From: Candidatus Levyibacteriota bacterium
GTDB taxonomy: Bacteria > Patescibacteriota > Microgenomatia > Levybacterales > GWA1-39-11
Assembly (NCBI GenBank): GCA_036788695.1
Contig: DAIQMY010000001.1
Location: 396,767 to 460,766 of the forward strand
Direction of reading: 5' to 3'
DNA length: 64,000 nt
Shown here: piece after piece, positions 1,081-64,000 of the stretch
Position numbering within the stretch: the stretch's first letter is position 1
Layout: each line of letters begins with the position of its first letter
Translations under genes and position numbers: made by a program
Notes under the pieces: model-generated
What the model was told of the DNA's origin: nothing
Database searches by the model: none
What the model saw: only the letters and a program-made list of their open reading frames with translations

Positions 1081-1081
1081 T

Positions 1082-3242: not shown

Positions 3243-3302
3243 ATACTGCATTTTCATATTACGCTTGCATATACGTACTTCCTTCGCTAATAATTAGTAT
3301 GT

Positions 3303-4184: not shown

Positions 4185-4192
4185 AAACATGT

Positions 4193-4447
4193 ATGGGTAA
4201 ACACAACAGCTATTACATATTAGAAACATTTTTACTGGGGATAGGTTTTTTTGCGATTTATATCTATTCACCACATGTCGTGATAGAGACAATATTAATT
4301 GGATTATTATTAGTATTTTATTCCGGAATGGGAATATTTCATCACTACAAAGAGCATGACATTCATGCAAAAATTGTGCTAGAATATATACTTATTAGTT
4401 GTCTTGTTCTGTCCATTTTTATGTTTTTAAAAAGCGGAATAGTATGA
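4193..4447 (+). CDS. small hydrophobic membrane protein, function unknown
   Basis: 84 aa with three predicted hydrophobic helices. ATGA overlap with rfbA suggests it is translated. Confidence 0.35.
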   Translation: MGKHNSYYILETFLLGIGFFAIYIYSPHVVIETILIGLLLVFYSGMGIFHHYKEHDIHAKIVLEYILISCLVLSIFMFLKSGIV

Positions 4448-5166
4448 AAGGAATAATTCTTGCGGGTGGTAAGGCCACTCGTCTTAGACCATTAACTAAA
4501 ATTACTTCAAAGCAGTTACTTCCTGTTTACGATAGGCCCATGATTTACTACCCTATTGAGACTTTAGCAAAATCAGGCATAAAAGACATACTTGTAATTG
4601 TTGCTCCAGAGTATTCAGGACATTTTCTGAATTTATTGGGATCAGGAAAAGATTTGGGTTTAAATTTTTCATATGAAGTACAAGAAGAGCCGCGTGGTCT
4701 CGCTGACGCATTTATTGTTGGAGAAAATTTTATAGGCGGAGACAGTGTAACAATGATTTTGGGAGACAATATATTTGAGCATGATTTTTCTGAAAGTATA
4801 AAAACATTTAAAGGCGGAGGTATGATTTTTGCAAAGAAAGTGCATGACCCTGAGCGATTTGGAGTAGTTGAGTTTGATGAACATTTTAAGGTCATCTCTA
4901 TTCAAGAGAAACCTGCTTCTCCAAAAAGTGAGTATGCTGCGGTAGGCTTATATATATATGATAATAAAGTGATACAGTACGCAAAAATGTTAAAGCCTTC
5001 AGAAAGAGGGGAGATAGAAATAGTTGATCTTCACAACGAATATTTAAAGAGGGGGAATTTAGCGGTAAATATAATTGATGGTATGTGGGAAGACGCAGGA
5101 ACTTTTGAAAGCTTGTTGCGGGTCAGTAACTTCATGGCAGCAAGAAAAAAGGATAAGTCTTCTTAA
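4444..5166 (+). CDS. rfbA: glucose-1-phosphate thymidylyltransferase (short form)
   Basis: MKGIILAGGKATRLRPLT nucleotidyltransferase signature. Start placed at the ATG at 4444. Confidence 0.8.
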   Translation: MKGIILAGGKATRLRPLTKITSKQLLPVYDRPMIYYPIETLAKSGIKDILVIVAPEYSGHFLNLLGSGKDLGLNFSYEVQEEPRGLADAFIVGENFIGGDSVTMILGDNIFEHDFSESIKTFKGGGMIFAKKVHDPERFGVVEFDEHFKVISIQEKPASPKSEYAAVGLYIYDNKVIQYAKMLKPSERGEIEIVDLHNEYLKRGNLAVNIIDGMWEDAGTFESLLRVSNFMAARKKDKSS

Positions 5167-5232
5167 TGGTGTATACTGGCATGTATAGGAAACAGAGAAA
5201 AAACGTATAGTATTTTACCTTGATTTAAATAT

Positions 5233-6249
5233 ATGAAATTACTAGTAACTGGCGGAGCGGGATTTATCGGATCAAATTTCATTCTTTATTGGCTTTCACA
5301 CCATAGAAATGATTTAGTGATAAATTTGGATAAGTTAACATACGCGGGAAATTTAGATAATCTAAAAAGTATAGAACATGATCCATCATACAAATTTATA
5401 AAGGGTGATATTTGTGATACTGATTTGGTCAGAGAAATAATGGATGGTGTAGATACAGTTGTTCATTTTGCGGCTGAATCACATGTTGATAGATCTATTA
5501 AAAAACCTCAGGACTTTGTTATCACTAATGTTGTTGGGACGCAGGTATTGTTAGACATAGCAGTTGAAAAAAAAGTGAAGAGATTTCATCATGTATCAAC
5601 TGATGAGGTTTTCGGATCTCTTGATCTTAATTCTTCCGATAAATTTAATGAACAAACTTCATATAACCCTCATAGTCCCTATTCCGCGAGTAAAGCGGCA
5701 TCTGACCATCTAGTGAGAGCATATGCAGATACATATGGTCTACCAATAACAATAACTAATTGTTCTAACAATTTTGGCCCATTTCAGTTTCCGGAAAAAC
5801 TTATTCCACTTGCAATAACAAATCTTTTGGAAGGCAAGAAAGTTCCTGTTTACGGGGATGGTTTATATGTAAGGGATTGGTTGCAGGTGGAAGATCATTG
5901 CAGGGCAATTGAAGCTGTGCTTATGAATGGGCATGTCGGAGAAACATACTGTGTGGGAGGAATGACTCAGGATATATCTAACTTAGAAATAGTAAAAAAA
6001 ATAATAATTCTTTTAGGGAAGGATGAATCTATGATAGAGTTCGTTAAAGACAGGCCAGGGCATGATAGAAGATATGCAATAGACTGGAGTAAGATAAACA
6101 GAGAGCTCGGGTGGCACCCTGCCTATGATTTTGAGACGTGGTTGGAGAAAACTGTAGATTGGTATAGGGAAAACCGTGAATGGTGGAAGAGGTTAAAAAA
6201 CGCTGAATTTGAAAAATACTATCAGGGACAATATGGGGAGGAGAGCTGA
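5233..6249 (+). CDS. rfbB: dTDP-glucose 4,6-dehydratase
   Basis: MKLLVTGGAGFIGSNF Rossmann motif and a YSASK catalytic motif. Length and neighbourhood fit RfbB. Confidence 0.8.
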   Translation: MKLLVTGGAGFIGSNFILYWLSHHRNDLVINLDKLTYAGNLDNLKSIEHDPSYKFIKGDICDTDLVREIMDGVDTVVHFAAESHVDRSIKKPQDFVITNVVGTQVLLDIAVEKKVKRFHHVSTDEVFGSLDLNSSDKFNEQTSYNPHSPYSASKAASDHLVRAYADTYGLPITITNCSNNFGPFQFPEKLIPLAITNLLEGKKVPVYGDGLYVRDWLQVEDHCRAIEAVLMNGHVGETYCVGGMTQDISNLEIVKKIIILLGKDESMIEFVKDRPGHDRRYAIDWSKINRELGWHPAYDFETWLEKTVDWYRENREWWKRLKNAEFEKYYQGQYGEES

Positions 6250-7115
6250 TGCAGCAGATTTTGGCAACAGGGGTAACAGGATTAATAGGTTCCAGATTAA
6301 CCCTGGTATTACATAACTTCGAGTTTCTAACGATCTCCCGTAAGGATGGGGCAGATATTACGCAAAAGGAATCTTTGAGGAAGAATTTCAGTTCTTTTAC
6401 GGGTAAATTTGTTCTCCATATGGCCGCTAAAGCAGACGTAGACGGTTGTGAGGAAGATAAAGAAATGGGCGAGCAGGGAGACGCATGGAAAATAAATGTT
6501 TTGGGAACTCAGAACGTAGCGGAGTTATGCAAGGAATACAATAAGAAAATTATATATATCTCAACAGACTTTGTCTTCAACGGTGAAAAAAAACAAGGAG
6601 ACGCATACACAGAAGAAGACATTGAACAACCGGTAAATTGGTACGGGGAGACTAAATTTCAAGGAGAGCAGAGAGTTAAAAAAAGTGGGGCAGAATATCT
6701 TATCTTAAGAATCGCATATCCGTATGGAGTAAGTAGCGCTGAAAAAAGAGATTTTGTAAGAATTATCGCATCAAGAATTAAAAATAATCAACCAGTAGCA
6801 GCTGTAACTGATCACATTTTTGTTCCAACGTATATTGATGATCTCTCGTATGCTATAAAAAGACTTATTGAGTTAGACGCTGCGGGAACGTATCATGTTG
6901 TGGGAAGTGATCCACTTACTCCATATGATGCGGCACGTTTGATAGCAAAGGAAATAAATGCTGACCCTGAGGCTATTGGAAAAACAACAAGAGAAGATTT
7001 TTTTCATGGTCGAGCAAAACGTCCTTTTAATTTATATTTAAGTAATGGTAAAATAGAAAATCTTGGGATTCGTATGGAGGGATTTGCAGAAGGTATTCAT
7101 AAGATGAGTATGTAA
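6249..7115 (+). CDS. rfbD: dTDP-4-dehydrorhamnose reductase-like (RmlD substrate-binding family)
   Basis: ILATGVTGLIGSRL and YISTDFVFNG...NWYGETKFQGE match the RfbD pattern YSTDYVF...YGETK. Confidence 0.65.
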   Translation: MQQILATGVTGLIGSRLTLVLHNFEFLTISRKDGADITQKESLRKNFSSFTGKFVLHMAAKADVDGCEEDKEMGEQGDAWKINVLGTQNVAELCKEYNKKIIYISTDFVFNGEKKQGDAYTEEDIEQPVNWYGETKFQGEQRVKKSGAEYLILRIAYPYGVSSAEKRDFVRIIASRIKNNQPVAAVTDHIFVPTYIDDLSYAIKRLIELDAAGTYHVVGSDPLTPYDAARLIAKEINADPEAIGKTTREDFFHGRAKRPFNLYLSNGKIENLGIRMEGFAEGIHKMSM

Positions 7116-7118
7116 AAG

Positions 7119-8408
7119 ATGAAAATAACATTTATTGGACATGGATATGTGGGTTTAGTAACAGCGGCAATTTTTGCTGATTTGGGGAATACTGTCTATG
7201 TCATAGGACACACAAAAGAGAAGATTGAAAATTTAAAAAAGGGCATTCTCCCAATATATGAGCCGGGGCTAAGTGAAATAGTTACACGAAATGTAGAGAA
7301 TGGTAGGTTAATCTTTACGCTTGAATATAGCCCAGCTGTTTCAGAATCCGAAGTTGTATTTATAGCTGTTGGAACTCCTCCGCAAAAAACAGGCGACGCA
7401 GAGTTAACAACAGTATTTAGCGTGGCTGAAAAAATCGCAAAAAATCTCACTCATTATACGGTGGTTGTAACAAAGAGTACTGTTCCTCCTGGGACCAATA
7501 GAAAGGTAAAAAGAATACTTGAGGAAAATGTAAAAGAAGGAATAGATTTTGATATAGCATCAGTGCCCGAATTTCTTAGAGAGGGAAGTGCTATTGAAGA
7601 TACCCTTCATCCTGATAGGGTTATCATAGGAACGGAAAAGGATAAACCCTTGGAGATTCTCAAAGAATTACATAAGCCAATGGGTGGGGAATTGGTTGCA
7701 ACAAATCTTGAGACTGCGGAACTTATTAAGTATGCATCAAATTCCTTTTTGGCTACTAAAATATCATTTGCAAACGCAATTGCTAAGTTGGCCGAAAAAA
7801 TAGGAGCAAATGCACCCGAAGCGCTACATGGAATTGGCTTAGATAAAAGGATTGGGGAAGCCTTTCTCTATGCGGGTGCGGGATATGGTGGTAGTTGTTT
7901 TCCAAAAGATGTAAAAGCGCTTTTGGCTATAGCAAAAGACAATGACTACAATTTTGCTCTTCTTGATGAGGTAGAAAAGATAAATGATTTTGCAAGACGA
8001 GATATTGTGAAAAAAGTAAAACGACTGTGTGGGGAGTTACGAGGTAAGACAGTGGGCATATTGGGTCTTTCATTTAAGCCAAATACTGATGACATGAGAG
8101 ATGCATCATCCATTACTATCATTAATCTATTAAAAAATGATGGTGTGAAGATAAAAGCTTATGACCCGCAGGCAATGGAGAACTCGAAAAAAATTATGCC
8201 AGAAATTACGTACTGTAAAGATCCATATGAAGTAGCAAAAGATGCAGATGCCATTTGCATACTTACTGAATGGAATGAATTTAGAGAGTTGGATTTAGAA
8301 AAAATTCGAAGTGTTATGAAGACGCCAAATCTGATAGATGGAAGAAATATATATGCACCGTCTGTGCTCGAGAAATTAGGGTTTAATTCAGTTGGGGTTG
8401 GAAGATAG
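7119..8408 (+). CDS. ugd: UDP-glucose 6-dehydrogenase (UDP-glucose/GDP-mannose dehydrogenase family)
   Basis: MKITFIGHGYVGLVTAAIFADLGN NAD-binding motif and a GSCFPKD catalytic Cys region. Confidence 0.8.
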   Translation: MKITFIGHGYVGLVTAAIFADLGNTVYVIGHTKEKIENLKKGILPIYEPGLSEIVTRNVENGRLIFTLEYSPAVSESEVVFIAVGTPPQKTGDAELTTVFSVAEKIAKNLTHYTVVVTKSTVPPGTNRKVKRILEENVKEGIDFDIASVPEFLREGSAIEDTLHPDRVIIGTEKDKPLEILKELHKPMGGELVATNLETAELIKYASNSFLATKISFANAIAKLAEKIGANAPEALHGIGLDKRIGEAFLYAGAGYGGSCFPKDVKALLAIAKDNDYNFALLDEVEKINDFARRDIVKKVKRLCGELRGKTVGILGLSFKPNTDDMRDASSITIINLLKNDGVKIKAYDPQAMENSKKIMPEITYCKDPYEVAKDADAICILTEWNEFRELDLEKIRSVMKTPNLIDGRNIYAPSVLEKLGFNSVGVGR

Positions 8409-8416
8409 TTGATATA

Positions 8417-9367
8417 ATGAAAAAGGCTTTCATAACAGGCGTTTCAGGATTTGCAGGCAGCTTTTTAGCTGAGGTACTATTGACTGAGGGAGTAGAAGTG
8501 CACGGAACCCATATTTCTTCTGATACTAAAAATATTGATCACATCAAAAACCGCGTACATCTTCATAAATTAGATTTGCTTGAGAGGGAAAAAGTACAAA
8601 AATGCATAGAAGAAGTTCAGCCTGATACGATATATCACCTTGCAGCCCTCACATCTCCTGCTGAAAGTTTTTCAAAACCAGAAACTGTATTTATAAATAA
8701 TGTAACAGCACAGATACACTTGTTAGAAGCTGTTAGGCTTTCAGAGGGTACTCCACGAATTATGATAATTTCTTCAGCGGAGGTTTATGGTATTGTGAAT
8801 TCATCAGACTTGCCTATATCTGAAAATATCCAGTTACGCCCAGGAAGTCCGTATGCAGTATCAAAGATTGCACAGGACTATTTGGGTTTGCAGTATTTTT
8901 TATCATACGGAATGGATATAGTACGCGTGAGACCGTTTAACCATATTGGGCCACGCCAATCGGCATCGTTTGTTGTATCATCATTTGCTAAGCAAATTGC
9001 AGAAGCTGAGAAAAAGAAAAATGGACAAGAAATTTTAGTTGGAAATCTGGATGCAAAAAGAGATTTTACTGACGTGAGAGATATGGTTCGGGCATATTCT
9101 TTACTTGCAGAAAAAGGAAAAAGTGGAGAAGTTTATAATATAGGCTCTGGAGTATCACATAGAATCTCGGACATTTTAGGTAAGCTCCTTTCTTTTTCCT
9201 ATGAAAAAATAGAAATAAAAGTAGATCCTTCTCGGATGAGACCATCTGATGTGCCTGACATACGATCTGATAATACGAAAATAAAAAATGCGACTAATTG
9301 GGTGCCGCATATTAAGCTTGATCAAACATTAAAAGATACACTTGATTATTGGAGAGATAACGTTTAA
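8417..9367 (+). CDS. NAD-dependent epimerase/dehydratase, probable GDP-4-keto-6-deoxy-D-mannose reductase (Rmd/Fcl-like)
   Basis: FITGVSGFAGSFLAE Rossmann motif and PYAVSK (YxxxK). Sits immediately upstream of gmd. Confidence 0.55.
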   Translation: MKKAFITGVSGFAGSFLAEVLLTEGVEVHGTHISSDTKNIDHIKNRVHLHKLDLLEREKVQKCIEEVQPDTIYHLAALTSPAESFSKPETVFINNVTAQIHLLEAVRLSEGTPRIMIISSAEVYGIVNSSDLPISENIQLRPGSPYAVSKIAQDYLGLQYFLSYGMDIVRVRPFNHIGPRQSASFVVSSFAKQIAEAEKKKNGQEILVGNLDAKRDFTDVRDMVRAYSLLAEKGKSGEVYNIGSGVSHRISDILGKLLSFSYEKIEIKVDPSRMRPSDVPDIRSDNTKIKNATNWVPHIKLDQTLKDTLDYWRDNV

Positions 9368-9389
9368 TATTTTAAAGTTAAGTTAATGT

Positions 9390-10373
9390 ATGGCTATGGC
9401 AAAAAAAGCTTTAATTACAGGGATCACTGGACAAGACGGATCGTATCTTGCTGAGTTTTTGCTCAAAAAGGGATACACGGTTTATGGATTGGTTCGCAGA
9501 CTTAGTACGCCAAATATAATTAACATTCGACATATCCAAGACAAGATAACAATTATTCCTGGAGATTTATTAGATCAAGGATCTCTTGCTGATGCACTGA
9601 TCACATCGGAACCTGATGAGGTGTATAATCTTGCCGCACAGTCATTTGTAAAGGCATCTTGGAGTCAGCCGGTTTTAACTGGTGAATTTACTGCGCTATC
9701 TGTTACAAGAATGTTAGAAGCAATAAGACAAGTTAATAAAAAAATAAAATTTTATCAAGCTTCATCCTCTGAGATGTTCGGCAAAGTTACGGAGACACCA
9801 CAGAAAGAGACTACTCGATTTTATCCACGCTCACCATATGGTGTTGCGAAAGTGTACGGTCATTATATAACGGTAAATTATAGAGAGAGTTATGATATGT
9901 ATGCTTGCTCGGGGATTCTCTTCAATCATGAGTCACCTAGGCGCGGGTTGGAATTTGTAACAAGAAAAATTAGCAACGCTGCTGCAAGAATTTCTTTGGG
10001 AAAGCAAAAAAAGCTTGAATTAGGGTCACTGGATCCTAAGCGCGATTGGGGTTTTTCAGGTGACTATGTTGAGGCGATGTGGCTAATGCTTCAACAGCCA
10101 AAGGCTGATGATTACGTGATTGCAACCGGTGAGAATCATTCTGTTGAGGAATTTGTAAAAATTGCGTTTGCTACCGCTGGGATAAAAGACTGGGAGGAAT
10201 ATGTGGTAGCAAATAAAAAAGAATTTATGAGGCCAGCTGAGGTAGATTATTTAATTGGAGATTATAGCAAGGCTAAAAAAGAATTAAGTTGGGAGCCTAA
10301 GACTTCATTTAAAGAACTGGTAGAGATGATGGTTAGGGCTGACCTTGATCTAGAAAAGAAAAACGATCTATAA
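9390..10373 (+). CDS. gmd: GDP-mannose 4,6-dehydratase
   Basis: [23 protein letters not shown] and [15 protein letters not shown] are classic Gmd motifs. Confidence 0.85.
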
Positions 10374-30796: not shown

Positions 30797-31018
30797 TTAC
30801 ATACCTGCAGTTGGTGGAGGAGTTGTTCCCCCGTCTACTGGTGTTTCTGGTTCAGGAGTTGGAGTTCCCATATCCCCAGTTGGTGCTGGTGTAGGTGTTC
30901 CTGTATCTCCTGTTGGCATTCCACCACCCATTCCTCCCTCTCCGCCTGTTGTAGGTTCAGGAGTTGGAGGAGTAGGAGTTTGACCCATTGGGTCTTGTGT
31001 TTGTCCGTTGTTGTCCAT
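30797..31018 (-). CDS. Pro/Thr/Gly-rich low-complexity small protein (73 aa)
   Basis: AGGAGGTG Shine-Dalgarno 9 nt upstream of the ATG. Internal repeats of the form PTGD(T/M)GTPTP. A terminator follows. The antisense plus-strand ORF at 30750-30983 is probably a shadow. Confidence 0.5.
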   Translation of the reverse strand: MDNNGQTQDPMGQTPTPPTPEPTTGGEGGMGGGMPTGDTGTPTPAPTGDMGTPTPEPETPVDGGTTPPPTAGM

Positions 31019-33715: not shown

Positions 33716-33786
33716 TGCCGGATCATCTAATGGTAGGATAGTGGACTCTGAATCCATTCATTCTGGTTCGAATCCAGGTCCGGCAG
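33716..33786 (+). tRNA. tRNA-Gln (anticodon CUG)
   Basis: Hand-folded cloverleaf: acceptor TGCCGGA/TCCGGCA (U1-A72, as in bacterial tRNA-Gln); D-stem ATCT/GGAT; anticodon stem GTGGA/TCCAT; loop CTCTGAA with U33 and anticodon CTG at 33748-33750; T-arm TCTGG-TTCGAAT-CCAGG; discriminator G. CCA is not encoded. Confidence 0.8.
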
Positions 33787-33787
33787 C
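33770..33787 (+). repeat. left copy of an 18-bp exact direct repeat (tRNA-Gln 3' end), putative attL
   Basis: GAATCCAGGTCCGGCAGC; an identical copy lies at 39952-39969. Confidence 0.75.
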
Positions 33788-35919: not shown

Positions 35920-38142
35920 TTATATTTTAACCTTTCTAAGTAGCAATGAATTTGAAACAACCGAAATTGATGATAAAGCCATTGCCACTGATGCAAAAAT
36001 TGGATTTAATAACATACCCATGAATGGGTATAGGGCACCCATTGCAACAGGAATCAGAAGTACGTTATACCCAAAAGCCCAGAACAAATTCACTTTAATT
36101 GTACGCATGGTCTTTTTAGAAAGTTCAATAGCAGAGGAGACTGCCTTTAAATCCTTGCTTATAAGTATGATGTCTGCCGCTTCAATTGCTACGTCGGTGC
36201 CTGAACCCATTGCAATGCCAATATCGGCTGCTGCGAGTGCGGGAGCATCATTAATACCATCTCCTACCATTGCGACTATTTTCCCTTCTGCTTGAATTTT
36301 TCTTACTTCTGCTTCTTTTTGGTCTGGCAATACTTCCGCTAATACACGTTTTATACCGAGCTTTTGTGCAATAGCATTAGCAGTTCTTTGATTGTCCCCA
36401 GTAATCATTATCACTTCTATTTTTTTATCTTGGAGTGCTTTCAAGCCTTCTTTTGCGGAATCCTTTATCGTATCAGCAACTGCAATAAGTCCAGCAAGTT
36501 TTCCATTAACTGCAAGCATTATTACTGTTTTTCCATCACTCTCTAGCTTGTTCATTTGTTCAGTAATTTCTTTATAATCAATTTTCTCTTTATCCATTAA
36601 TTTTCTACTTCCTAGAAATACTTTTTTAGTGTTGATCAACCCTTCGACTCCATGACCATCAATAGCTTGAAATTTCGTAACTGAACCAATTTCCAACTTC
36701 TGTTCTTCTGCTTTATTTACGATTGCCTCAGCAAGAGAATGTTCTGATCCTTTTTCAATTGATGCAGAAAACTGAAGTACATCATCTTTTTTGAATGAAT
36801 TAAAAGGAATAATATCAGTGACGATTGGTTTCCCGTTTGTAAGAGTTCCAGTTTTATCAAATACGACAGTATTTACTTTGTTTGCCAGCTCTAAACTTGC
36901 AGCGTCTTTTATGAGGATACCCCGTTGTGCCCCCACACCTGTTGCAACCATAATTGCAGTGGGCGTTGCTAAGCCCATTGCGCAGGGACAAGCAATGATA
37001 AGTACAGCTACCGTATTGAGCATCGCATACAAAAGAGACGGATTAGGACCAAAAATATACCAAACGCCAAATGTCGCGAAAGCAAGCATAATCACGATTG
37101 GTACGAAATATGACGACACTGTATCTGCAAGACGTTGTATTGGGGCCTTACTTCCTTGTGCTTCTTGTACGAGCTTTATTATTTGAGCAATCATGGTATC
37201 AGACCCAACTTTCATTGCCTTATATATAAATGTGCCTGACTTGTTCATGGTAGAACCAATAACCATATCGCCCTTAGATTTATCTACTGGAAGACTTTCT
37301 CCGCTAATCATTGACTCATCAATCGATGATTCTCCTTCAATAATTTCGCCATCAACAGGTATTTTTTCTCCTGGTCTTACGCGAATAACATCCCCAACTT
37401 GTACTTGCTCAATGGGAATATCTATCTCTTTACCATCCCTTATAACTCGTGCTGTTTTTGCTTGCAGTTCTACAAGCTTTTTAATGGCGCTTGAAGTTCC
37501 AGCCTTAGCTTTTGCTTCAAAGTAGCGGCCTAAAAGAATCAGACCAATAACTATCGTAGCAACATCAAAATAAGGCATTATTTCAACGCCTAGACCTATA
37601 AAAACATTAGGGAAGATAGTTACAACCGCAGAATATAAATATGCAACTGTAGTACCTAAAGCAACTAATGTATCCATATTTGAAGTTCTGTTTTTCAGTG
37701 CAGCAATAGCAGTTCTGTAGAACTCTAATCCAGCCCAGAACTGTACAGGTGTGGCTAAAAGCATTTGTACCCAGAAGTTATGCAAAATCGCTGGGGCAGT
37801 GTTCATAAGCCCTGGGAATGAACCCCAGAGGATTAAACCACCTAGTGCCAGACTGGTAATAACTTTATTCCTTAACCCTTGTAGTTCTTTTCTTCTTTCA
37901 GCAAGAGCGATTTCTTCGCTTTTTTCTTCAAGTTCAAGAGTGTAACCAGTTTTAGCAATAGAGTCTGCTAATTGTTGTGGCGTGCAAATGTCTTTATCGT
38001 AGGTAACCGTAGCTTTCTCAGTGGCTAAGTTTACAACAGCCTCTTTAACTCCTTGCACTTTTTTCAAAGCACGTTCGGTAACTCTTACACAGGAAGCACA
38101 ATGCATACCTTTCATTGGAAATGTTTGTTTTGTTTTTGCCAT
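35920..38142 (-). CDS. copA: copper-translocating P1B-type ATPase
   Basis: N-terminal HMA domain [12 protein letters not shown]-like SGESLPV, the CPC motif in [18 protein letters not shown], and [10 protein letters not shown]. Start set at the ATG at 38142 (MAKTKQ). Confidence 0.9.
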
Positions 38143-38143
38143 A

Positions 38144-38503
38144 TTATTGAACGATAATCTTTCCATGAAACATATTCATGCCACAGGATATTTCAAATGT
38201 TCCGCTTCTGGTAGGCGTTATTTGTATAGGAGTTGTTTTATTTAACGGTAGATATTTTCTTATTTTAAAATCGGGCAACACAACTTCTTCAAGACAAGAG
38301 CTGGGGTCGCGACGAATAAAATTAATAGTTGTCTGTTTATCTTTAGGAATTGAAATAACGCTTGGAGAATATCCACCTTCTACAGTAATATCCAGACTAT
38401 TTCCTTTTACGACAACCGCTTCACCATCTTTCCTCATTAAGAAAAACCAATAAGTGAAAGCAATGCCACTAATACTAGATATAGCTACAAGTAATTTATC
38501 CAT
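38144..38503 (-). CDS. small cupredoxin-like protein
   Basis: N-terminal TM helix. The C-terminal [16 protein letters not shown] block is paralogous to the C-terminus of the 34895-35917 protein. Confidence 0.5.
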
Positions 38504-39484: not shown

Positions 39485-39951
39485 ATATCCCCCTATGAGG
39501 GATATACTAGAGAATTATAGAATAAAAGTCAATGCTATTTCTAAACAAGGGGTAATGAAGTGATGGTTTCGTTGTGAGTATACAGATGCCTTATTTACCT
39601 TCAACAGCCTGGAGAAATGATGGTACTATAATGATAGAATGGGTCTAGACCATGAGGTACAGCAGATTCGACTCGCTTCGCTCGCTTACAGCTATAGCCA
39701 AGAGGAGAATCATCCTAAGTGGGCAACGCGAACCGAAGGAATATGCCTTTTTACGTTTACATTCTTCGTAGCACTTCAAGCCAATTATATTGGTCAAGCA
39801 AAATAATCTTCAGAATAGAGAGCATCAACAATTAACAAAAAGTTCTAAGGCGGCAAAGTATATTAAAGATAGTGAAGAATTTAAACTCGTCTTTCATGAA
39901 GAGTATTCAAGTAGGTTTGAATGTGTAAATTAACTGTGAGCTAGCCGAACA

Positions 39952-39969
39952 GAATCCAGGTCCGGCAGC
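39952..39969 (+). repeat. right copy of the 18-bp direct repeat (partial tRNA-Gln 3' end), putative attR
   Basis: GAATCCAGGTCCGGCAGC, identical to 33770-33787. Confidence 0.75.
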
Positions 39970-58075: not shown

Positions 58076-58149
58076 GTGTAACCCAAATGCAAAGCCCTGA
58101 GCCTGTCGAATGACTACCATTAGGCATTAGAATATGTTTCGGGTTGAAT
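58076..58149. repeat. mosaic repeat copy A: head and tail modules only
   Basis: GTGTAACCCAAATGCAAAGCCCTGAGCCTGTCGAA...CTACCATTAGGCATTAGAATATGTTTCGGGTTGAAT matches the head and tail of copy B. Confidence 0.7.
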
Positions 58150-58786: not shown

Positions 58787-58833
58787 GAGGGTGATTTTAG
58801 CTCGATTTTATATATAAAGCAAGCTGTTTAACG

Positions 58834-59049
58834 TGTGACCCACATGCAAAGCCCTGAGCTTGTCGAAGGGTTTTCCTGTCCTGAGCTTGTCGAAGGGTTC
58901 TCGCCCTTTGTGCTCGCAGGGAACCAAATTCGAAGCTCTTTGGAGCAGTGGAAACAGGTCTTGCAGTCTGAGCGTATTTCAGCTTCTTTTTTAATTACCA
59001 TGGGATACTTGGTACGAATGGAAATTAGAATATGTTTCGGGTTGAATAT
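58834..59049. repeat. mosaic repeat copy B, full length (about 216 bp)
   Basis: Modules GTGTGACCCACATG, a doubled CCTGAGCTTGTCGAAGGG, TTCTCGCCCTTTGTGCTCGCAGGG, AACCAAATTCGAAGCTC, TTGGAGCAGTGGAAACAGGTCTTGCAGTCTGAGC, and tail GGAAATTAGAATATGTTTCGGGTTGAAT. Confidence 0.75.
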
Positions 59050-59063
59050 TCCCCCTTAGGTAC

Positions 59064-59387: not shown

Positions 59388-59421
59388 GTGTGACCCCACG
59401 GGAATGGATTCGGCAAGCTCA
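59388..59421. repeat. short repeat module GTGACCCCACGGGAA...CAAGCTCA abutting the GIY-YIG stop codon
   Basis: The same module recurs at 63628-63666 at the 3' end of the second GIY-YIG gene. Confidence 0.6.
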
Positions 59422-59727
59422 CCATTTTTTTCCAGAGTTATCCTTTGACACGCTCCGGGATTTACTTAACTGTTTTAACAACTCTAGATTGCCCTCGAGA
59501 AGAGCTCTCTTTTTTGCAACAGTCCAACCTTTAATTTGTTTTTCACGTTTTTCTGCATCTTTTCTTGTTAGATGCTCTTCAGTAAAAACTAGCTCAATGT
59601 AAGAAAACTCTTTAGTACCAATGTTTTGTTTTGATGTGTGAGATTTTAATCTTTGAGCAACGTTATGAGTAAGACCAACGTAGTACGTTTTCTTATCGCA
59701 AAAAAGAATATAGACATACCAGGGCAT
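59419..59727 (-). CDS. GIY-YIG nuclease family protein (YhbQ/UPF0213-like, about 103 aa)
   Basis: MPWYVYILFCDKKTYYVGLTHNVAQRLKSH...KGWTVAKK has the GIY...YIG pattern with conserved Arg and Glu. Start set at the ATG at 59727. The track ORF to 59895 is inflated by read-through of repeat C. Confidence 0.7.
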   Translation of the reverse strand: MPWYVYILFCDKKTYYVGLTHNVAQRLKSHTSKQNIGTKEFSYIELVFTEEHLTRKDAEKREKQIKGWTVAKKRALLEGNLELLKQLSKSRSVSKDNSGKKW

Positions 59728-59744
59728 ACACTTATTATGGTGTA

Positions 59745-59927
59745 AAACCCTGAGCTTGCCGAAGGGTGACCCAAATGTTTTTGAATTGCCCTGAGCTTGT
59801 CGAAGGGTTCTCGCCCTTTGTGCTCGGAGGGGAACCAGATTCGTGGCTCCCTCGAGAAATGGAAAACTGTCTTGGGGCCTGAGCTCACTCCGCATCTACT
59901 GACCCGCTACCACTAGAATTTAGAATC
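59745..59927. repeat. mosaic repeat copy C
   Basis: CCTGAGCTTGCCGAAGGGTGACCCAAATG...CCTGAGCTTGTCGAAGGGTTCTCGCCCTTTGTGCTCGGAGGGGAACCAGATTCG...CTACCACTAGAATTTAGAAT. Confidence 0.75.
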
Positions 59928-60883
59928 TTTTCTAATGGTGGATTGTTTTTCTGTATCTTTATTCCTAAGAGCTGAGGAATATCGGTTCTTATCCATACAT
60001 TATCAAGATTGTCTGAATACGGTTGTAATGGATCACGTCTAAGAGTGTCGGGAATTAACTTGTCTTCCCAGGTAAATCTCTGAACGTATTCGGTGTTGTG
60101 ATCCAACACCTTCTCAAGTGGCTGAGTTCGGGGAACTACTGCTCGTTGATCAACATCCTTTTCTTCGGGTACGTATGAAACAATCTCGACAGAGCTGGAG
60201 TTGACAGTAACTGCCATATTTCTTCCATTTCGCACTAAATCATATTCCTTTCCTATCTCAAGCGTTAGATCACCTTCAGTGAGATCGGACGAACCACGTC
60301 CTTTCAATACAGCTTCACCTGTCTCCTTATCAAATTTGATCTCTAGAGAATCGTTGTCCCATCCTTTTTCTGATCTATTTTGAGCCCGTAGGATATTATT
60401 ATCCATGAGTAGCAATCCTTCTAGGGTAGCGATAGTACTGTCTTGGAAGGCATAGTTAAAAGAAAGTTCAAGGTTATGGGCAAAAGGAATTAATACCCCT
60501 AGATTGTCTTCACTTTTATCAAGAACAGAGCCTACCTGGGTAATACCGATAGTATCTGGGTGATGAAGAGTAAATCCGCCGTTTTTCATGAAGGCAAGGC
60601 TAAAATTGGTGAGGTCATTGAGCAACTCACCTTCAGGAAATTCTGGCCAATCCATATCTAGGTCTGAATTCCAGGAGTCAGTCAAACGTAATATCCTCAC
60701 TTTTTCTCTTTTCGCAATTACATCTGCGCTTCCGGGTTCATTCCCAGCTCTAAACATATTTTGCTCATCAAGAATCACAGCATCCCTATTGTATGGTGCG
60801 TCTTTAAATGCTGCTCTTTGCTTATCAAGGTGGGTTCTGTGTAGATCTTCAGGCATATGAAGGTAGTATACACAAATATCCAA
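59885..60883 (-). CDS. hypothetical protein (332 aa)
   Basis: No recognisable motif. Flanked by repeat copies C and D. Confidence 0.45.
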   Translation of the reverse strand: MDICVYYLHMPEDLHRTHLDKQRAAFKDAPYNRDAVILDEQNMFRAGNEPGSADVIAKREKVRILRLTDSWNSDLDMDWPEFPEGELLNDLTNFSLAFMKNGGFTLHHPDTIGITQVGSVLDKSEDNLGVLIPFAHNLELSFNYAFQDSTIATLEGLLLMDNNILRAQNRSEKGWDNDSLEIKFDKETGEAVLKGRGSSDLTEGDLTLEIGKEYDLVRNGRNMAVTVNSSSVEIVSYVPEEKDVDQRAVVPRTQPLEKVLDHNTEYVQRFTWEDKLIPDTLRRDPLQPYSDNLDNVWIRTDIPQLLGIKIQKNNPPLEKILNSSGSGSVDAE

Positions 60884-60926
60884 GAGGGGAATAGGCCTAG
60901 CTTAAACCCAAGTTTGGTTGGAACCT

Positions 60927-61100
60927 AAATAGCCTTGAAAATTCGGGATTTGAAAAAGATTTCGAAAATATAGCTTCAGGTGACCCAAATGTTTTTGAAT
61001 TGGAACCAAATTCGAAGCTCGTTGGAGCAGTGGAAGCAAGTCTTACAGCCTGACTTCAATTCAAAGCTACTGACCAACTACCCCTAGGAATTGGAATACC
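60927..61100. repeat. mosaic repeat copy D
   Basis: AAATAGCCTTGAAAATTCGGGATTTGAAAAAGATTTCGAAAATATAGCTTCAGGTGACCCAAATG...GGAACCAAATTCGAAGCTCGTTGGAGCAGTGGAAGCAAGTCTTACAGCCTGAC...CCCCTAGGAATTGGAATACC. Confidence 0.75.
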
Positions 61101-61140
61101 GAGGGAATAGTAATAACTTACTTAGATAACCCTGAGTTGA

Positions 61141-61710
61141 CTACTTTTTCCTGAATGCTTGAAATATGAAGAAAATAAGCACAACTAAGCTTACAAGGTT
61201 TATTAGAAAAAGCGATGTCGTCCTATTGTAAATGTTTACTAAATACTCATGAGACCCAGCTTTGAGATGAAAATTTGCATAGTATTCAAAAATTCTCTGG
61301 ACTAAGATCAGCATTGATTGAATAAAGAAGTATATCCCAAGTCCTAGAAGCAACAGACGTATTCTTAAAATTGCATTCTGTTGTTTACTAAATGTTCTAT
61401 AGACAGCAAAAAATACAATACTTACGGCAAACAATAATGAACCCAATAAGATTGGTCCATATGTAATAAGTAGTGGATAGATAATTTCCAAAAAGTTTTT
61501 ATTCTGTTGCTGGTCGAGTGAAGCTCCATAAAATGCCCAGAAAAAACTTGCAGGCAGTACTACTCCAAATCCAAAAGGAATTGGAACTATGAAAAAAAGT
61601 GCGATATAAATTATGATAGCGAGAAAAAAGATTGGCATTATTTTTTTCATTGTTACTTGAAGTATTTCAAGATTTAAATAGTAAGTCAAGTAAGCTCTTG
61701 AGGGCTTCAA
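61141..61710 (-). CDS. hypothetical polytopic membrane protein (189 aa)
   Basis: Five or six hydrophobic helices. Flanked by repeat copies D and E. Confidence 0.45.
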   Translation of the reverse strand: MKPSRAYLTYYLNLEILQVTMKKIMPIFFLAIIIYIALFFIVPIPFGFGVVLPASFFWAFYGASLDQQQNKNFLEIIYPLLITYGPILLGSLLFAVSIVFFAVYRTFSKQQNAILRIRLLLLGLGIYFFIQSMLILVQRIFEYYANFHLKAGSHEYLVNIYNRTTSLFLINLVSLVVLIFFIFQAFRKK

Positions 61711-61715
61711 GGGAA

Positions 61716-61966
61716 TTCGAACTATTTTAGCTTCAAAATCAGAAGAATTTGTCGAAGATTTTAAAATTTAGCTTCAAGTGAGCCAAATGTTTTCTTTGAC
61801 CCTCGAAGCTTTAGCGAAGTGGGTTGAATTGCCTGGTACTCCAGGTTCTCGCCCTGAGTACTCGAAGGGGAACCAAATACGAAGCTCGCTTGAATAGTGG
61901 AAACAAGTAATTCAGCCTGAGCTTAGTTCAGGTTCTTTGGCTAACTACCATTAGAAATTAGAATCG
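61716..61966. repeat. mosaic repeat copy E
   Basis: GAATTCGAAC...AGATTTTAAAATTTAGCTTCAAGTGAGCCAAATG...TTCTCGCCCTGAGTACTCGAAGGGGAACCAAATACGAAGCTCGCTTGAATAGTGGAAACAAGT...CTACCATTAGAAATTAGAATCGGG. Confidence 0.75.
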
Positions 61967-61999
61967 GGTATAGAAGATGGAAGATAAGTTTAATAGAAA

Positions 62000-62533
62000 C
62001 TATTTAGTTTCAGAAGTAGCAAGTCTTTTAAAACCCTTAACTGGAAAATTAGCATTATCCTGTCTGAAAGATGTAATTTCTGTTCTCGGATTAAGCAGAG
62101 CGTGGTCTAGGGCCTCTTCAATTTCTTTTATGTCAGTCACCTTGTGTGGCATTCCTGATTCCATATGTTTTGAATCTCTTCCTCTTACAGTGACCCTCAG
62201 GGGATTGTCTCCGATGCTTATGCCTACTAAGTCTACTCTTCCAAACATCCATTTTTCAGGATCAAATTTATTTCCATATTCACCATGTTTTGTGAGATCA
62301 GTGATTAGGCATATCGTTGGGTCTGCTCCTTCTTCAATTGCTTGATCGGTTGAAATGCCTACTATTGCGCGTTGTCCTTGTTCTGTCAGAGAAGCTGCTC
62401 GATCAAGCGCCAGTGATACCATAGGAGAAGTTTTGAGTTTTGCTAGATCTGCCAGGCGATATTCTAAGCGTTTTTCCAAAATTGAAGCTGTAATCCTTTC
62501 CCGTTGTGGACCTTCATGTAACCGTGTACTCAT
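62000..62533 (-). CDS. hypothetical protein (177 aa)
   Basis: No recognisable motif. Flanked by repeat copies E and F. Confidence 0.45.
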   Translation of the reverse strand: MSTRLHEGPQRERITASILEKRLEYRLADLAKLKTSPMVSLALDRAASLTEQGQRAIVGISTDQAIEEGADPTICLITDLTKHGEYGNKFDPEKWMFGRVDLVGISIGDNPLRVTVRGRDSKHMESGMPHKVTDIKEIEEALDHALLNPRTEITSFRQDNANFPVKGFKRLATSETK

Positions 62534-62575
62534 AGATGCTATTCTATAACTATTTTAATGATTGTCAAGCAGCGC

Positions 62576-62618
62576 TTGTTCTGAGCCTGCCCAAGGACTA
62601 CCATTAGGAATTAGAATC
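62576..62618. repeat. mosaic repeat copy F: short head-tail form like A
   Basis: GTTCTGAGCCTGCCCAAGGACTACCATTAGGAATTAGAATCCA. Confidence 0.65.
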
Positions 62619-63525
62619 CATTTACTGCTGCAACAATATCATCGTCAGCTTGTTCTGTATCCCAAGCCACTTGAGGATTAAAATTATCGGGTCTAAAATC
62701 ATTTATTCTTTTGTAATCATCATCTGACATTATAAAATCGGTGGCAGAGTAATTCTCATCAATGTGTTTCTTGCTTGTAGAAAAAACCATTGGACTATAT
62801 CCTAAGTTACAAATCCAGTTTAGAACAATTTGATTTTGTGTCTTTCCATACTTTTCTGACAGCTCAACAAGTAAGGGCCAATTTTCCTCCATAGTCTTAG
62901 CTCTTCTTAAAGGTCTCCAGATTATATTTTTAACACCTAACTCATCACAAATATTGAATACCCCTTTATCTTGAAGCACCCTAACTTCAAAACTAAGGTG
63001 TCCTTCGTGAGCATAAAACTTATCACCAAACTCATTCTTAAAGGCTTTAATAAATTCGGGGCTGGCATTTGAAAGACTTACAAATCTCGTTTTCCCCGCC
63101 TGAAGTAAATCTTTTAGTATTGGATAGACTTCATCTTCACCAAACTTTAATACGAGTCCTTGTGTTATTAAGGTGGAGTCAGCGTAATCGGTATCCATTA
63201 TTTTATGAAAGCTTTCAACGTCTTCGGTAATTGTTTCTATGGACTGTAAGTCTCGTGGGTAAAAAGAGTGAGTAAAGAAAATATCTTCTCGCTTCACTGA
63301 GCTTTTATCGAGTGCTTGCTTAAAGATTTTTATTGAGTTTCCATGTCCGTAGCCTAATGCTATCTCAGTAAAATTTATTCCTTTATTTAGAGTATAAACG
63401 AGTGCTGAGACGTAGGTTTCATCATCCCGTTTTTCTGTCAGTTCAATATCTCTATGACCTCTACCACCAATCCCATAACTTCCTATTCCAATCCTTGATA
63501 CATCTTTACCAGAAATAGTTTTCAT
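62611..63525 (-). CDS. aldo/keto reductase family oxidoreductase
   Basis: IGIGSYGIGG, ALGYGHGNS...IF and the C-terminal IIWRPL-type motifs fit the AKR fold. Confidence 0.65.
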   Translation of the reverse strand: MKTISGKDVSRIGIGSYGIGGRGHRDIELTEKRDDETYVSALVYTLNKGINFTEIALGYGHGNSIKIFKQALDKSSVKREDIFFTHSFYPRDLQSIETITEDVESFHKIMDTDYADSTLITQGLVLKFGEDEVYPILKDLLQAGKTRFVSLSNASPEFIKAFKNEFGDKFYAHEGHLSFEVRVLQDKGVFNICDELGVKNIIWRPLRRAKTMEENWPLLVELSEKYGKTQNQIVLNWICNLGYSPMVFSTSKKHIDENYSATDFIMSDDDYKRINDFRPDNFNPQVAWDTEQADDDIVAAVNGF

Positions 63526-63569
63526 CTAATCGATTATATCATCAACTACCCAAAAAACACTTCGAACCG

Positions 63570-63666
63570 AAATAGCCTCAAAAACTGAAGATTTGAAAAA
63601 GATTTCGAAAATATAGCTTTATGTGACCCCACGGGAAGTTTCCTCGGTGAACTCGGAACAAGCTCA
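63570..63666. repeat. mosaic repeat copy G: shares the D-type 5' module and the GTGACCCCACGGGAA module
   Basis: AAATAGCCTCAAAAACTGAAGATTTGAAAAAGATTTCGAAAATATAGCTTTATGTGACCCCACGGGAAGTTTCCTCGGTGAACTCGGAACAAGCTCA. Confidence 0.7.
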
Positions 63667-63960
63667 ATTTTCAACTTCTCGAACGAGGTCTTTGGCAAAT
63701 TCAGTACAAGCGTTTATACCAAGTCTTTCATCTATTAACATTTGTTTCTTTGCGTGGGACCATCCTTTAAATTGTCTTTCTCTTTTTGCAGCTTCATATT
63801 TATTTTCGTATCGTTCACTGTAGACAAGAGTAAATCGAGAAAACTGTTTGGTAAAAGTGGATTGCTTGTTTTTATGTTGTAAAAATCTGTTTTTCAAATC
63901 ATCGGAAATTCCTACATAAAAAGTTTTCTCGTCGCAAAGAAGGATGTAGACATACCACAT
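63664..63960 (-). CDS. GIY-YIG nuclease family protein (YhbQ/UPF0213-like), second copy
   Basis: MWYVYILLCDEKTFYVGISDDLKNRFLQHKNKQ...FKGWSHAKK. Paralogous to the 59419-59727 gene. Confidence 0.7.
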   Translation of the reverse strand: MWYVYILLCDEKTFYVGISDDLKNRFLQHKNKQSTFTKQFSRFTLVYSERYENKYEAAKRERQFKGWSHAKKQMLIDERLGINACTEFAKDLVREVEN

Positions 63961-64000
63961 GCTGTTTTATAAGTGGGTGCCTTCTTGAATACAAGAAGTG

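Follow-up and report, generated by a model that had tools for sequence, protein, structure and literature searches.

Small GIY-YIG nuclease genes in hairpin-ended cassettes at tRNA genes: a candidate homing-endonuclease-like element in a Levyibacteriota genome

Introduction

Near the end of a 64-kb stretch of a Candidatus Levyibacteriota genome (contig DAIQMY010000001.1, positions 396,767 to 460,766; 64,000 nucleotides, hereafter the window), two small GIY-YIG nuclease genes are embedded in a family of mosaic intergenic repeats, which raises the question of what ties these genes to the repeats around them. An earlier note on this sequence had answered that they might form a selfish gene with its cognate sites, akin to homing endonucleases or miniature inverted-repeat transposable elements (MITEs). 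We find that genes and repeats belong to one hairpin-ended unit that sits directly behind tRNA genes, with a second copy of that same tRNA's 3' end on its far side, and we consider the unit to be probably a homing-endonuclease-like selfish cassette located at the segment from T-loop to 3' end of tRNA genes, with the GIY-YIG gene as its cargo.

The repeated module is the 3' end of a tRNA-Glu gene

Both genes are intact open reading frames (ORFs) of the UPF0213/YhbQ type on the minus strand, GIY #1 at 59419-59727 (102 aa; hidden Markov model (HMM) E 4e-48) and GIY #2 at 63664-63960 (98 aa; E 2e-41), and match the Pfam GIY-YIG family PF01541 with E-values of 1.1e-15 and 1.5e-15. They share 47% identity over 79 aa (E 3e-27), in agreement with the coordinates and the roughly 50% identity of the earlier note. 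Their TGA stop codons lie inside CAAGCTCA (reverse complement TGAGCTTG) at 59414-59421 and 63659-63666, and downstream of each follows the 15-mer GTGACCCCACGGGAA, which occurs exactly twice in the window (59390-59404 and 63623-63637). This shared sequence had been correctly recognized, though not its proposed spacing of 15-20 nt, as the gaps from stop codon to 15-mer on the coding strand are 14 nt for GIY #1 and 26 nt for GIY #2.

The 15-mer had been taken for a module specific to the element, and this view does not hold. The final 10.3 kb of the window are 100% identical to two contigs of 476-491 kb in the European Nucleotide Archive (ENA; loci L001 and L002), of which L001 extends past the window into an intact tRNA-Glu(CTC) gene, which lies ca. 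20 nt outside the window and immediately upstream of GIY #2. This tRNA gene ends in TTCCCGTGGGGTCAC and is directly followed by the left hairpin TTCGGCAAGCTCA, 56 nt of leader and GIY #2; hairpin and tRNA gene together occupy nt 1-93 past the window end in the sequence of the identical contig (L001 9868-9953). The window end itself falls in the leader of GIY #2, 3 nt past the last base of the left-hairpin motif TTCGGCAAGCTCAGTGCAAG, and the part of the leader between left hairpin and ATG that belongs to the window spans 63961-64000 (minus strand). The last 15 nt of tRNA-Glu(CTC), TTCCCGTGGGGTCAC, are the reverse complement of GTGACCCCACGGGAA, and because they terminate the adjacent intact tRNA gene, the supposed module is a duplicated tRNA-Glu 3' end, whose GTGACCC core is most likely the end of the acceptor stem. 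The system is therefore targeted to tRNA genes.

A general cassette of ca. 350-420 bp reads, in the order of the coding strand, as follows: the 3' end of the tRNA gene, a left hairpin whose 13-nt loop (TTCGRCAAGCTCA) is conserved and whose short stem varies, a leader of 10-60 nt and the GIY-YIG ORF, which without exception runs in the direction of the tRNA. The loop then recurs in inverted form, once at or in the 3' end of the ORF and once in a right hairpin, and the cassette closes with 15-18 nt copied from the tRNA, reaching from the T-loop (positions about 57-59) to the discriminator, while the tRNA gene itself stays intact.

Both cassettes at tRNA-Glu(CTC) fit this plan, with the ORF bracketed by the 13-nt loop upstream and its reverse complement downstream, and all their parts lie on the minus strand. 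In cassette #2, a decayed inverted left loop, TGAATTTGCCAAA (63692-63704), is found within the 3' coding part of GIY #2 and corresponds, by comparison with the right ends of related cassettes, to their conserved ...CTE(L/F)... / TGTACTGAGCTTGTTGAAG segment. The right hairpin TTCC-GAGTTCACCGA-GGAA (63640-63658) is preceded by TGA-GCTTG and surrounded by an outer stem GAAGTT (63673-63678) / AACTTC, and behind it stands the 17-nt copy of the tRNA-Glu(CTC) 3' end, ACTTCCCGTGGGGTCAC (63623-63639), which contains what the earlier note had called the module. Cassette #1 begins with ...TTTGGGTCAC, and its left end (59747-59772) comprises GGGTCAC, which appears from its sequence to be a decayed tRNA-Glu end, and then the hairpin (A)CCC-TTCGGCAAGCTCA-GGGT (ACCC-TTCGGCAAGCTCA-GGGT with the bracketed base), followed by a leader of 23 nt and GIY #1. 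Its right hairpin ATGG-TGAGCTTGCCGAAT-CCAT (59404-59425), of a type also present in L087, L089, L008 and L011, holds the TGA stop codon within its loop, and the 15-nt tRNA-Glu(CTC) copy TTCCCGTGGGGTCAC (59390-59404) comes after it.

From the tRNA-Glu copy of cassette #2 to cassette #1 (59.9-63.5 kb), four ORFs separated by mosaic repeats intervene, one of them an aldo-keto reductase by Pfam and three without any Pfam match. An orthologue of GIY #1 with 79% identity in another Levybacteria genome (L089) lies directly behind the tRNA-Glu(CTC) gene of that genome and carries a copy of the end of this tRNA at the same place as cassette #1. This arrangement suggests that GIY #1 was once adjacent to the tRNA and became displaced by later insertions, i.e., the 4-kb segment and cassette #2. 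A 213-aa protein of L089 and a 210-aa protein of the window were considered as a sign of synteny and rejected, as they are not homologous.

In the subfamily of GIY #1 (L007, L009, L011, L087, L089 and window positions 59734-59762, minus strand), the loop reads TCGACA or TCGGCA and is followed by a spacer of 17-18 nt and then by a TATACT, CATAAT or TAATAT box that ends 5-6 nt ahead of the ATG. In cassette #1 of the window this box is CATAAT, 6 nt ahead of the ATG. Judged by sequence, loop and box resemble a good promoter of the sigma-70 type, and its transcript would be a leaderless mRNA. A scan for promoters and terminators found no enrichment over shuffled sequences and no terminator-like signal, and cassettes are probably expressed by read-through from the tRNA.

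The same arrangement in other genomes

Scanning one genome per species with the protein, we assembled 80 loci with GIY-YIG homologues, chosen by similarity to proteins of the Candidate Phyla Radiation (CPR), which stem from CPR, Planctomycetota, Kiritimatiellia, Verrucomicrobiota, Nitrospirota, Acidobacteriota, Chloroflexota, Bacteroidota and Proteobacteria. A co-oriented tRNA gene lies at most 300 nt upstream of the GIY-YIG start in 27 of these 80 loci, with a distance of 25-60 nt in 15 of them, and a tRNA gene downstream of the ORF was found in none of the 80; by the density of non-adjacent tRNA genes in the same loci, ca. 0.4 tRNA-adjacent loci would be expected. These counts were made with tblastn, which may overlook divergent GIY-YIG ORFs, and aragorn, which misses some tRNAs, and adding T-loop motifs that aragorn had overlooked brings tRNA adjacency to 30 of 78 loci. 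The tRNA types beside the homologues include His, Glu, Ser, Gln, Asn, Met, Leu and Ala, and their flanks repeat the order known from the window, with tRNA end and left loop before the ORF and, behind it, the right hairpin and a copy of the 3' end of that very tRNA.

A co-occurrence of GIY-YIG genes with the repeats, which the earlier note had put forward as a check, is borne out at this scale, as genes and GAGCTTGYCGAA hairpin repeats form one unit: across 68 loci, the strict 13-mer core reaches 2.30 per kb within 200 nt of a GIY-YIG ORF vs. 0.017 per kb more than 500 nt away, a ca. 130-fold difference. We also searched metagenomes independently of the gene for the 21-nt left hairpin TTCGGCAAGCTCAGTGCAAGC. 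Among the metagenome matches listed, 48 of 117 copies (41%) abut an intact tRNA gene, with 18 different anticodons represented, and a GIY-YIG ORF begins within 100 nt after the hairpin in 41 of 102 copies (40%).

Duplications, derivatives and alleles

One sign of insertion is the duplication of the tRNA 3' end. Among 69 tRNAs that precede a left loop, 35 are followed downstream by an exact repeat of 12 nt or more taken from their own final 24 nt, compared with 1 of 69 each for the controls, i.e., the 24-mer of the tRNA 5' end and copies located upstream. The copies start 17-18 nt from the tRNA end, within the T-loop, and fall into two distance classes of 82-93 nt (without ORF) and 329-425 nt (with GIY-YIG ORF). 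Duplication length varies from 11 to 19 nt, with a single case of 47 nt, and the ends of the duplicated unit are hairpins rather than simple inverted repeats. Members of the short class, here called minis, were found at tRNA-Arg, Asp, Phe and Glu; they keep both ends, retaining left hairpin, ORF-terminal inverted loop, right hairpin and duplicate, and are internal-deletion derivatives. Beside many other tRNAs, the left hairpin stands alone.

An occupied and an unoccupied allele of the same site are available for a tRNA-Glu(TTC) gene, which is filled in L136 and empty in L139; the filled allele has ca. 360 nt of extra sequence and the 47-nt duplication, which runs from the T-loop through a left hairpin that was already present. 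At the tRNA-Glu(CTC) of the window, the otherwise identical strains L001 and L002 diverge exactly at GGGTCAC|TTCGGCAAGCTCA upstream of GIY #2, and this junction of tRNA and hairpin is a strain-level hot spot of insertion. The L001 side (1-9960) carries tRNA-Glu, a rhodanese and glycosyltransferases, and the L002 side (1-7398) carries TraC-like, DUF87/TraG-like and peptidase M23 genes, SMODS and SLATT genes reminiscent of cyclic-oligonucleotide-based antiphage signaling systems (CBASS), as well as helix-turn-helix (HTH) and phospholipase D (PLD)-family genes.

Hairpin ends

Across loci, the hairpin loops are conserved and the closing stems vary but remain complementary. Nine distinct Watson-Crick stems of 4 bp occur among the right hairpins, with a mean of 3.35 contiguous pairs vs. 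1.42 +/- 0.20 after permutation of the arms among loci. Distant loci build the left stem from the NCCA end of the tRNA, which pairs with a complementary TGGN of the element. The initial 5-10 nt of the tRNA duplicate frequently recur as an inverted copy upstream of the right hairpin; this copy can reach 10 bp, as in L170 (GGACTAGGAT/ATCCTAGTCC) and L115 (GGGGTGGGAT/ATCCCACCCC), and the observed mean of this inverted flank copy was reached by 1 of 2,000 permutations. Because it is, in L170 and L115, no copy of the tRNA's own T-stem 5' strand and preceding sequence, the inverted segment either took the flank as its template or was selected for pairing with it.

Hairpins also occur within hairpins: The left-type loop TTCGGCGAGCTCA with its own stem lies inside the right-hairpin loop CTCT-GAGC[...]CCGA-AGAG at about 3300-3360 of L017 and at 385-440 of L136, and GC-rich hairpins inserted into the left loop enlarge it in distant phyla (TTCGAC-[hairpin]-GCTCA). 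Hairpin modules seem capable of insertion into one another. A search of Rfam over 57.9-64 kb, at the gathering threshold and at E<=10, returned nothing relevant, and the hammerhead-like appearance of GAUGAGAAG in right ends was dropped for want of Rfam support.

The nuclease

The proteins are single-domain members of the UPF0213/YhbQ subfamily, on which domain layout, size, sequence and fold all agree. In an alignment of 17 sequences, the catalytic residues Y6, Y16, R26, H30 and E62 are invariant as expected of the GIY-YIG superfamily, and the AlphaFold model shows a beta-beta-alpha-beta-alpha core at a predicted local distance difference test (pLDDT) score of 83. Closest among solved structures, by profile comparison with the PDB, are the UPF0213 proteins BH0048 (1ZG2; E 1.2e-13) and EF2693 (1YWL; E 2e-11), which also occupy ranks 1 and 2 of a Foldseek search with the model, ahead of Slx1 and then the N-terminal domain of UvrC. 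GIY #1 shows dN/dS values of 0.07-0.12 against its two orthologues and hence is under purifying selection as a protein. No domain beyond GIY-YIG is found in the ORFs of 98 and 102 aa, which differ in this from the two-domain Seg/I-TevI type of ca. 200-250 aa, and the score for the NCBIfam model grpIintron_endo is 20.8 bits at a cut-off of 56. Cassettes encode no known class of transposase (DDE, HUH, serine or tyrosine), the GIY-YIG gene being their sole ORF.

Several ORFs in this region are spurious and read through repeats, namely 59419-59895 (minus strand; a 158-aa extension of the GIY #1 ORF), 58835-59059 (plus strand) and 58828-59001 (minus strand), with peptides such as ...PFGKLRVLHHNKCM..., PELVEGF and FDKLRA. 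The 126-aa database protein P0002 is of the same kind, a GIY-YIG ORF over-extended at its N-terminus, and repeat-derived peptides are likely to contaminate protein databases. In ten loci of Proteobacteria, Synechococcus and others (L041, L045, L050, L051, L053, L056, L060, L079, L084 and L085), no stop codon interrupts the frame of the GIY-YIG domain over 440-530 codons. At least five of these loci have the hairpin core directly behind the domain (at about 3280-3300), so that these long ORFs may be read-through artifacts of high-GC sequence rather than fusions.

Third cassette and mosaic repeats of the window

A third, decayed cassette lies on the plus strand downstream of the tRNA-Gln(CTG) gene at 33716-33787. 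Its first part (39667-39740), which resembles L069 and L073, holds a left-type loop, TTCGACTCGCTTCGCTCGCTTACAGCTATAGCC, behind a decayed tRNA-Gln-like end and then a right-type hairpin, TCCT-AAGTGGGCAACGCGAACCGA-AGGA, that precedes a frameshifted and truncated GIY-YIG pseudogene at 39743-39930 (HMM E 4.8e-4), of which HMM positions 1-17 are in one frame and positions 21-57 in another. Its right hairpin, CTG-TGAGCTAGCCGAA-CAG (39934-39969 including the tRNA copy), leads into GAATCCAGGTCCGGCAGC, an exact 18-nt copy of the tRNA-Gln 3' end at 39952-39969 that derives from the tRNA-Gln(CTG) gene and ends the cassette.

Between this tRNA gene and the decayed cassette, a block of ca. 5.9 kb (33.8-39.6 kb) holds ORFs that, judged by eye from their translations, look like copper or heavy-metal resistance genes, comprising a P-type ATPase (35920-38166), CopZ-, cupredoxin-, DUF305- and CsoR-like proteins and a permease. 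Reading of the translations, as opposed to a domain scan, revealed no integrase-like ORF in this block or in the 4-kb segment at tRNA-Glu, and the tRNA-Gln block therefore looks like an island without an integrase that has tRNA-end repeats at its borders. Elsewhere in the window, proline/threonine-rich tandem repeats with periods of 12 nt and 39 nt at 1534-1593 and 30826-30969 are probably low-complexity coding repeats unrelated to the cassettes.

The core motifs that the earlier note had seen recur in the mosaic repeats are indeed enriched over expectation in the window: TTCGRCAAGCTCA has 7 matches at up to 1 mismatch vs. 0.17 expected (six in 58.1-59.8 kb and the seventh, at 39937, in the third cassette), GAGCTTGYCGAA has 19 matches at up to 2 mismatches vs. 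6.8 expected, and GTGACCC has 9 matches vs. 2.2 expected, with five in intergenic repeats, all on the plus strand. Apart from the site at 39.9 kb, core motifs are restricted to 58.0-63.7 kb, and their enrichment is not due to chance. Solo hairpin cores, all on the minus strand, comprise TCATTCGACAGGCTCAGGGC at 58094-58113 beside GGGTTAC, a remnant resembling an acceptor end; two tandem cores CCC-TTCGACAAGCTCA-GGG/GGA at 58852-58897 (58852-58870 and 58879-58897) with a GTGGGTCAC remnant at 58833-58841 beside them; and CCC-TTCGACAAGCTCA-GGG at 59789-59807, immediately upstream of the left end of cassette #1. Related mini-hairpins, CCAAA-GAGCTTCGA-ATTTGG, are found at 58924-58943 and 61006-61025. 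Going by their letters, the GGGTCAC and GGGTTAC remnants in the mosaic repeats could well be decayed tRNA-Glu ends, and the mosaic repeats fit scars of repeated insertion at tRNA-Glu.

That solo repeats are internally deleted GIY-YIG units, as the earlier note had envisaged, applies to ORF-less derivatives of other genomes, where an origin by internal deletion is established for the minis only; the mosaic repeats of the window share with other genomes just the hairpin core of 19-20 nt. It is also this core alone that the other fetched loci have in common with the window, since the large D1/D2 repeat, a 69-nt module and the ACTACCATTAGAAATTAGAATC module are lineage-specific. The 69-nt module, TTGGAACCTAAATAGCCTTGAAAATTCGGGATTTGAAAAAGATTTCGAAAATATAGCTTCAGGTGACCC, occurs twice (60918-60986 and 63561-63629, 86% identity), ends both times in a GTGACCC sequence resembling an acceptor end and is absent from every other fetched locus. 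The ACTACCATTAGAAATTAGAATC module (reverse complement GATTCTAATTTCTAATGGTAGT) is present at 59885-59930, 62597-62625, 61944-61965 and 58113-58134, at the 3' ends of minus-strand genes, and provides the stop codon or last residues of two ORFs, ...ILNSSGSGSVDAE in a 323-aa gene and ...NGF in the aldo-keto reductase.

Candidate mechanism and alternative explanations

The selfish gene with cognate sites that the earlier note had proposed agrees with the finding of one unit, its ORF-less derivatives and the filled/empty pair, though the targeting of tRNA genes had been missed. Architecture, tRNA-specific duplication, derivatives and polymorphism are established by comparison of loci, and we infer that the nuclease initiates insertion by acting on these sites. 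The protein of ca. 100 aa would recognize the T-arm and 3' end of tRNA genes and/or the cassette hairpins and would cut near the tRNA 3' end, as SegB of phage T4 does; the cassette might then be copied in by repair or recombination, which would duplicate the 3' segment of the tRNA. ORF-less minis and solo hairpins would be deletion products or footprints, maybe mobilized in trans. As the tRNA-proximal junction would remain a hot spot, later insertions, be it of another cassette or of gene islands, would displace older cassettes and, with them, their copy of the tRNA end. Such accretion could have produced the series of tRNA-Glu, GIY #2, a 4-kb stretch of cargo and mosaic repeats, GIY #1 and tRNA-Glu copy as well as that of tRNA-Gln, 5.9-kb copper island, GIY-YIG pseudogene and tRNA-Gln copy. 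How duplication and inverted flank copy would arise is a matter of speculation, with hairpin or cruciform intermediates as one conceivable route and a circular junction of right end, tRNA copy and left end that recombines with the tRNA as another. The hairpin loop starts with TTCGA like the T-loop, a match of five common bases that may be coincidental. More tentatively, UPF0213/YhbQ-type proteins at large may be the mobility nucleases of previously undescribed, cross-phylum hairpin-ended cassettes and MITE-like derivatives that would insert between T-loop and 3' end of tRNA genes, thereby duplicate 15-18 nt of the tRNA and give rise to a short inverted flank copy, and seed integrase-less tRNA islands.

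A number of observations weigh against selfish insertion by the nuclease. The protein lacks a DNA-binding domain of the Seg/I-TevI type, and neither the 2-nt staggered cuts of known GIY-YIG enzymes nor classical homing, which is free of duplications, would account for a duplication of 15-18 nt; known GIY-YIG chemistry does not explain the inverted flank copy either. By thermodynamics, single hairpins are short and no more stable than shuffled sequence, and the case for hairpins is therefore one of covariation alone. Part of the loop conservation in the GIY #1 subfamily could reflect promoter function as a -35 box, given the promoter-like look of loop and box. For the window species, the exact 24-mer of the empty site had 0 matches in metagenome contigs, and look-ups of the neighboring 323-aa and aldo-keto reductase proteins gave only the same arrangement and no empty allele. 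A tree of the GIY-YIG proteins, weak on account of few and short sequences, suggests no strict clustering by tRNA type. Finally, ca. 60% of the left hairpins among the metagenome matches listed have no GIY-YIG ORF behind them, and a left-type loop is unrecognizable upstream in 26 of 78 homologue loci. The earlier note had held that repeat copies in related genomes lacking any GIY-YIG gene, or such genes without the flanking module, would break the association; the data go part of the way towards both, and the association is strong but not obligatory.

Each of three other explanations accounts for part of these data and none for all. A GIY-YIG gene that benefits the host, for example as a nuclease that deals with damage or R-loops where tRNA genes are highly transcribed, might be co-transcribed with tRNAs while hairpins and tRNA copies act in RNA processing, stability or termination, as signals that free the mRNA from the tRNA precursor. 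Strict co-orientation, a spacing down to 24-30 nt with no room for a promoter in many loci and the strong purifying selection on the protein would all be expected from such a gene, RNA structure would equally explain the covariation of stems, and the start of the tRNA copy takes part in a stem that mimics a T-arm. Yet the copy is in every case one of the local tRNA, whichever of 18 anticodons this has, with the length and position of an insertion duplication, and it lacks the acceptor 5' strand that a substrate of RNase P or RNase Z requires. Neither terminator-like signals nor Rfam matches were found, and several paralogous copies per genome, ORF-less minis, nested hairpins, solo footprints, pseudogenes and the filled/empty pair are hard to reconcile with a host function, which we therefore consider unlikely. 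A group I intron in the tRNA, which in CPR sits at position 35/36 in the anticodon loop (PMC13011429), was rejected, as no Rfam intron matched at the gathering threshold or E<=10, the upstream tRNA is uninterrupted and the non-coding parts measure only ca. 40-70 nt.

The tRNA-end copies may also be viewed as att scars of integrase-mediated tRNA islands, with GIY-YIG genes and hairpins as passengers or border features. Direct repeats of tRNA 3' ends are the classical signature of island integration, and both the cargo genes between tRNA and distal cassette in the window (33.8-39.6 and 59.9-63.5 kb) and the conjugation/defense island of L002 at the same tRNA-Glu junction are in line with it. We nevertheless give this view little credit, because at least 30 independent loci have only the GIY-YIG ORF of ca. 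300 nt or nothing at all between tRNA and copy, the hairpins flank the ORF in fixed order and orientation, and cassettes contain no integrase, with no integrase-like ORF noticed either among those listed for the two window islands, some of which were also scanned against Pfam. Equally improbable to us is an independent family of REP- or MITE-like hairpins (REP, repetitive extragenic palindrome) moved by an unlinked enzyme that gathers at tRNA and GIY-YIG genes, or into which GIY-YIG genes land. Such a family would readily account for the many solo copies, which are the majority among the metagenome matches listed, for the ORF-less cores in the mosaic repeats and for hairpins that nest in each other's loops (L017, L136), but not for the ca. 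130-fold enrichment of the core at GIY-YIG ORFs or the constant placement of one loop upstream and an inverted one downstream that overlaps the ORF 3' end or stop codon. The same pairing of gene and hairpins in CPR, Planctomycetota, Kiritimatiellia, Nitrospirota, Acidobacteriota and Chloroflexota likewise speaks against it.

If UPF0213/YhbQ-type proteins at large are such mobility nucleases, this would provide a first biological role for the large family, as selfish nucleases targeted to tRNA genes, and explain the origin of the widespread TTCGACAAGCTCA intergenic repeats, which are hairpins of 19-20 nt in distant phyla. The tRNA genes of reduced CPR genomes may accrete cargo without an integrase, such as copper resistance, aldo-keto reductase, conjugation and defense genes. 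If hairpins or the structure of tRNA genes are indeed what the nuclease reads, it would be a DNA nuclease of very small size with specificity for structure or site, and possibly a tool. Annotation would gain as well, as spurious read-through ORFs like the 158-aa ORF at 59419-59895 and the 126-aa P0002 can be corrected.

Comparison with known systems

A search of the literature for the gene family, its tRNA association and the repeat sequence, which was not exhaustive, found no description of the cassettes or the repeat and a sole functional precedent, SegB of phage T4. SegB is a free-standing, two-domain homing endonuclease with a C-terminal DNA-binding domain, whereas the cassette proteins consist of a single UPF0213-type domain of 98-102 aa. 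Homing by SegB also leaves no hairpin ends, tRNA-end duplication or ORF-less derivatives and acts between co-infecting phages, not chromosomes. Both have in common the GIY-YIG domain and a gene among tRNA genes, SegB being encoded within the phage tRNA gene cluster (PMC2330249). It recognizes GGTTCRANTCC and cuts right after CCAR at the tRNA 3' end (PMC2330249), and this span and cut point match the segment that is duplicated here and the start of the left hairpin. As in elements of the Seg/I-TevI type, the gene lies beside a conserved target (in 27-30 of about 80 loci) and shows presence/absence polymorphism (L136/L139). By analogy, SegB is the strongest external support for nuclease-driven insertion.

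Among relatives of the protein in the UPF0213/YhbQ family (COG2827), BH0048 of B. halodurans (1ZG2) and EF2693 of E. faecalis (1YWL) have the same size and single-domain layout and were deposited as hypothetical proteins, and E. coli yhbQ is not known to be linked to tRNA genes. The eukaryotic structure-specific GIY-YIG nuclease Slx1 is the next-best fold for the modeled protein, with a probability of about 1, a root-mean-square deviation of 2-3 A and 21-25% identity. Slx1 processes branched DNA according to the titles of its structure entries, which is compatible with a nuclease that reads hairpins or cruciforms, but it is a repair enzyme and no gene of a mobile element. It has an extra C-terminal domain and needs its partner Slx4.

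With REP/REPIN-RAYT systems and IS200/IS605 elements, the cassettes share dispersed intergenic hairpin repeats tied to one small nuclease gene that they flank, and ends in which hairpins matter more than long terminal repeats; the sequence by the hairpin foot that is complementary to the flank recalls the guide sequences of IS608. In contrast to the GIY-YIG gene of the cassettes, these systems use HUH/Y1 enzymes, and they show neither tRNA targeting nor a target duplication of 15-18 nt. Islands and prophages that tyrosine integrases insert at tRNA genes resemble the cassettes in tRNA repeats from T-loop to end, the restoration of the tRNA gene and serial accretion, but the cassettes lack an integrase and their unit measures only ca. 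90 nt (minis) or ca. 400 nt. They recall MITEs in their inverted terminal motifs and flanking duplication, albeit with hairpins as ends and a variable duplication length, and they have ORF-less, internally deleted copies that retain both ends; unlike MITEs and their partners, they encode no transposase of the insertion-sequence classes, go to a single structured target, the 3' end of the tRNA, and carry a long duplication. We view the cassettes as a selfish element similar to homing endonucleases and MITEs that is built on a nuclease family of unknown function, with a substantial chance that they represent a distinct class of mobile element.

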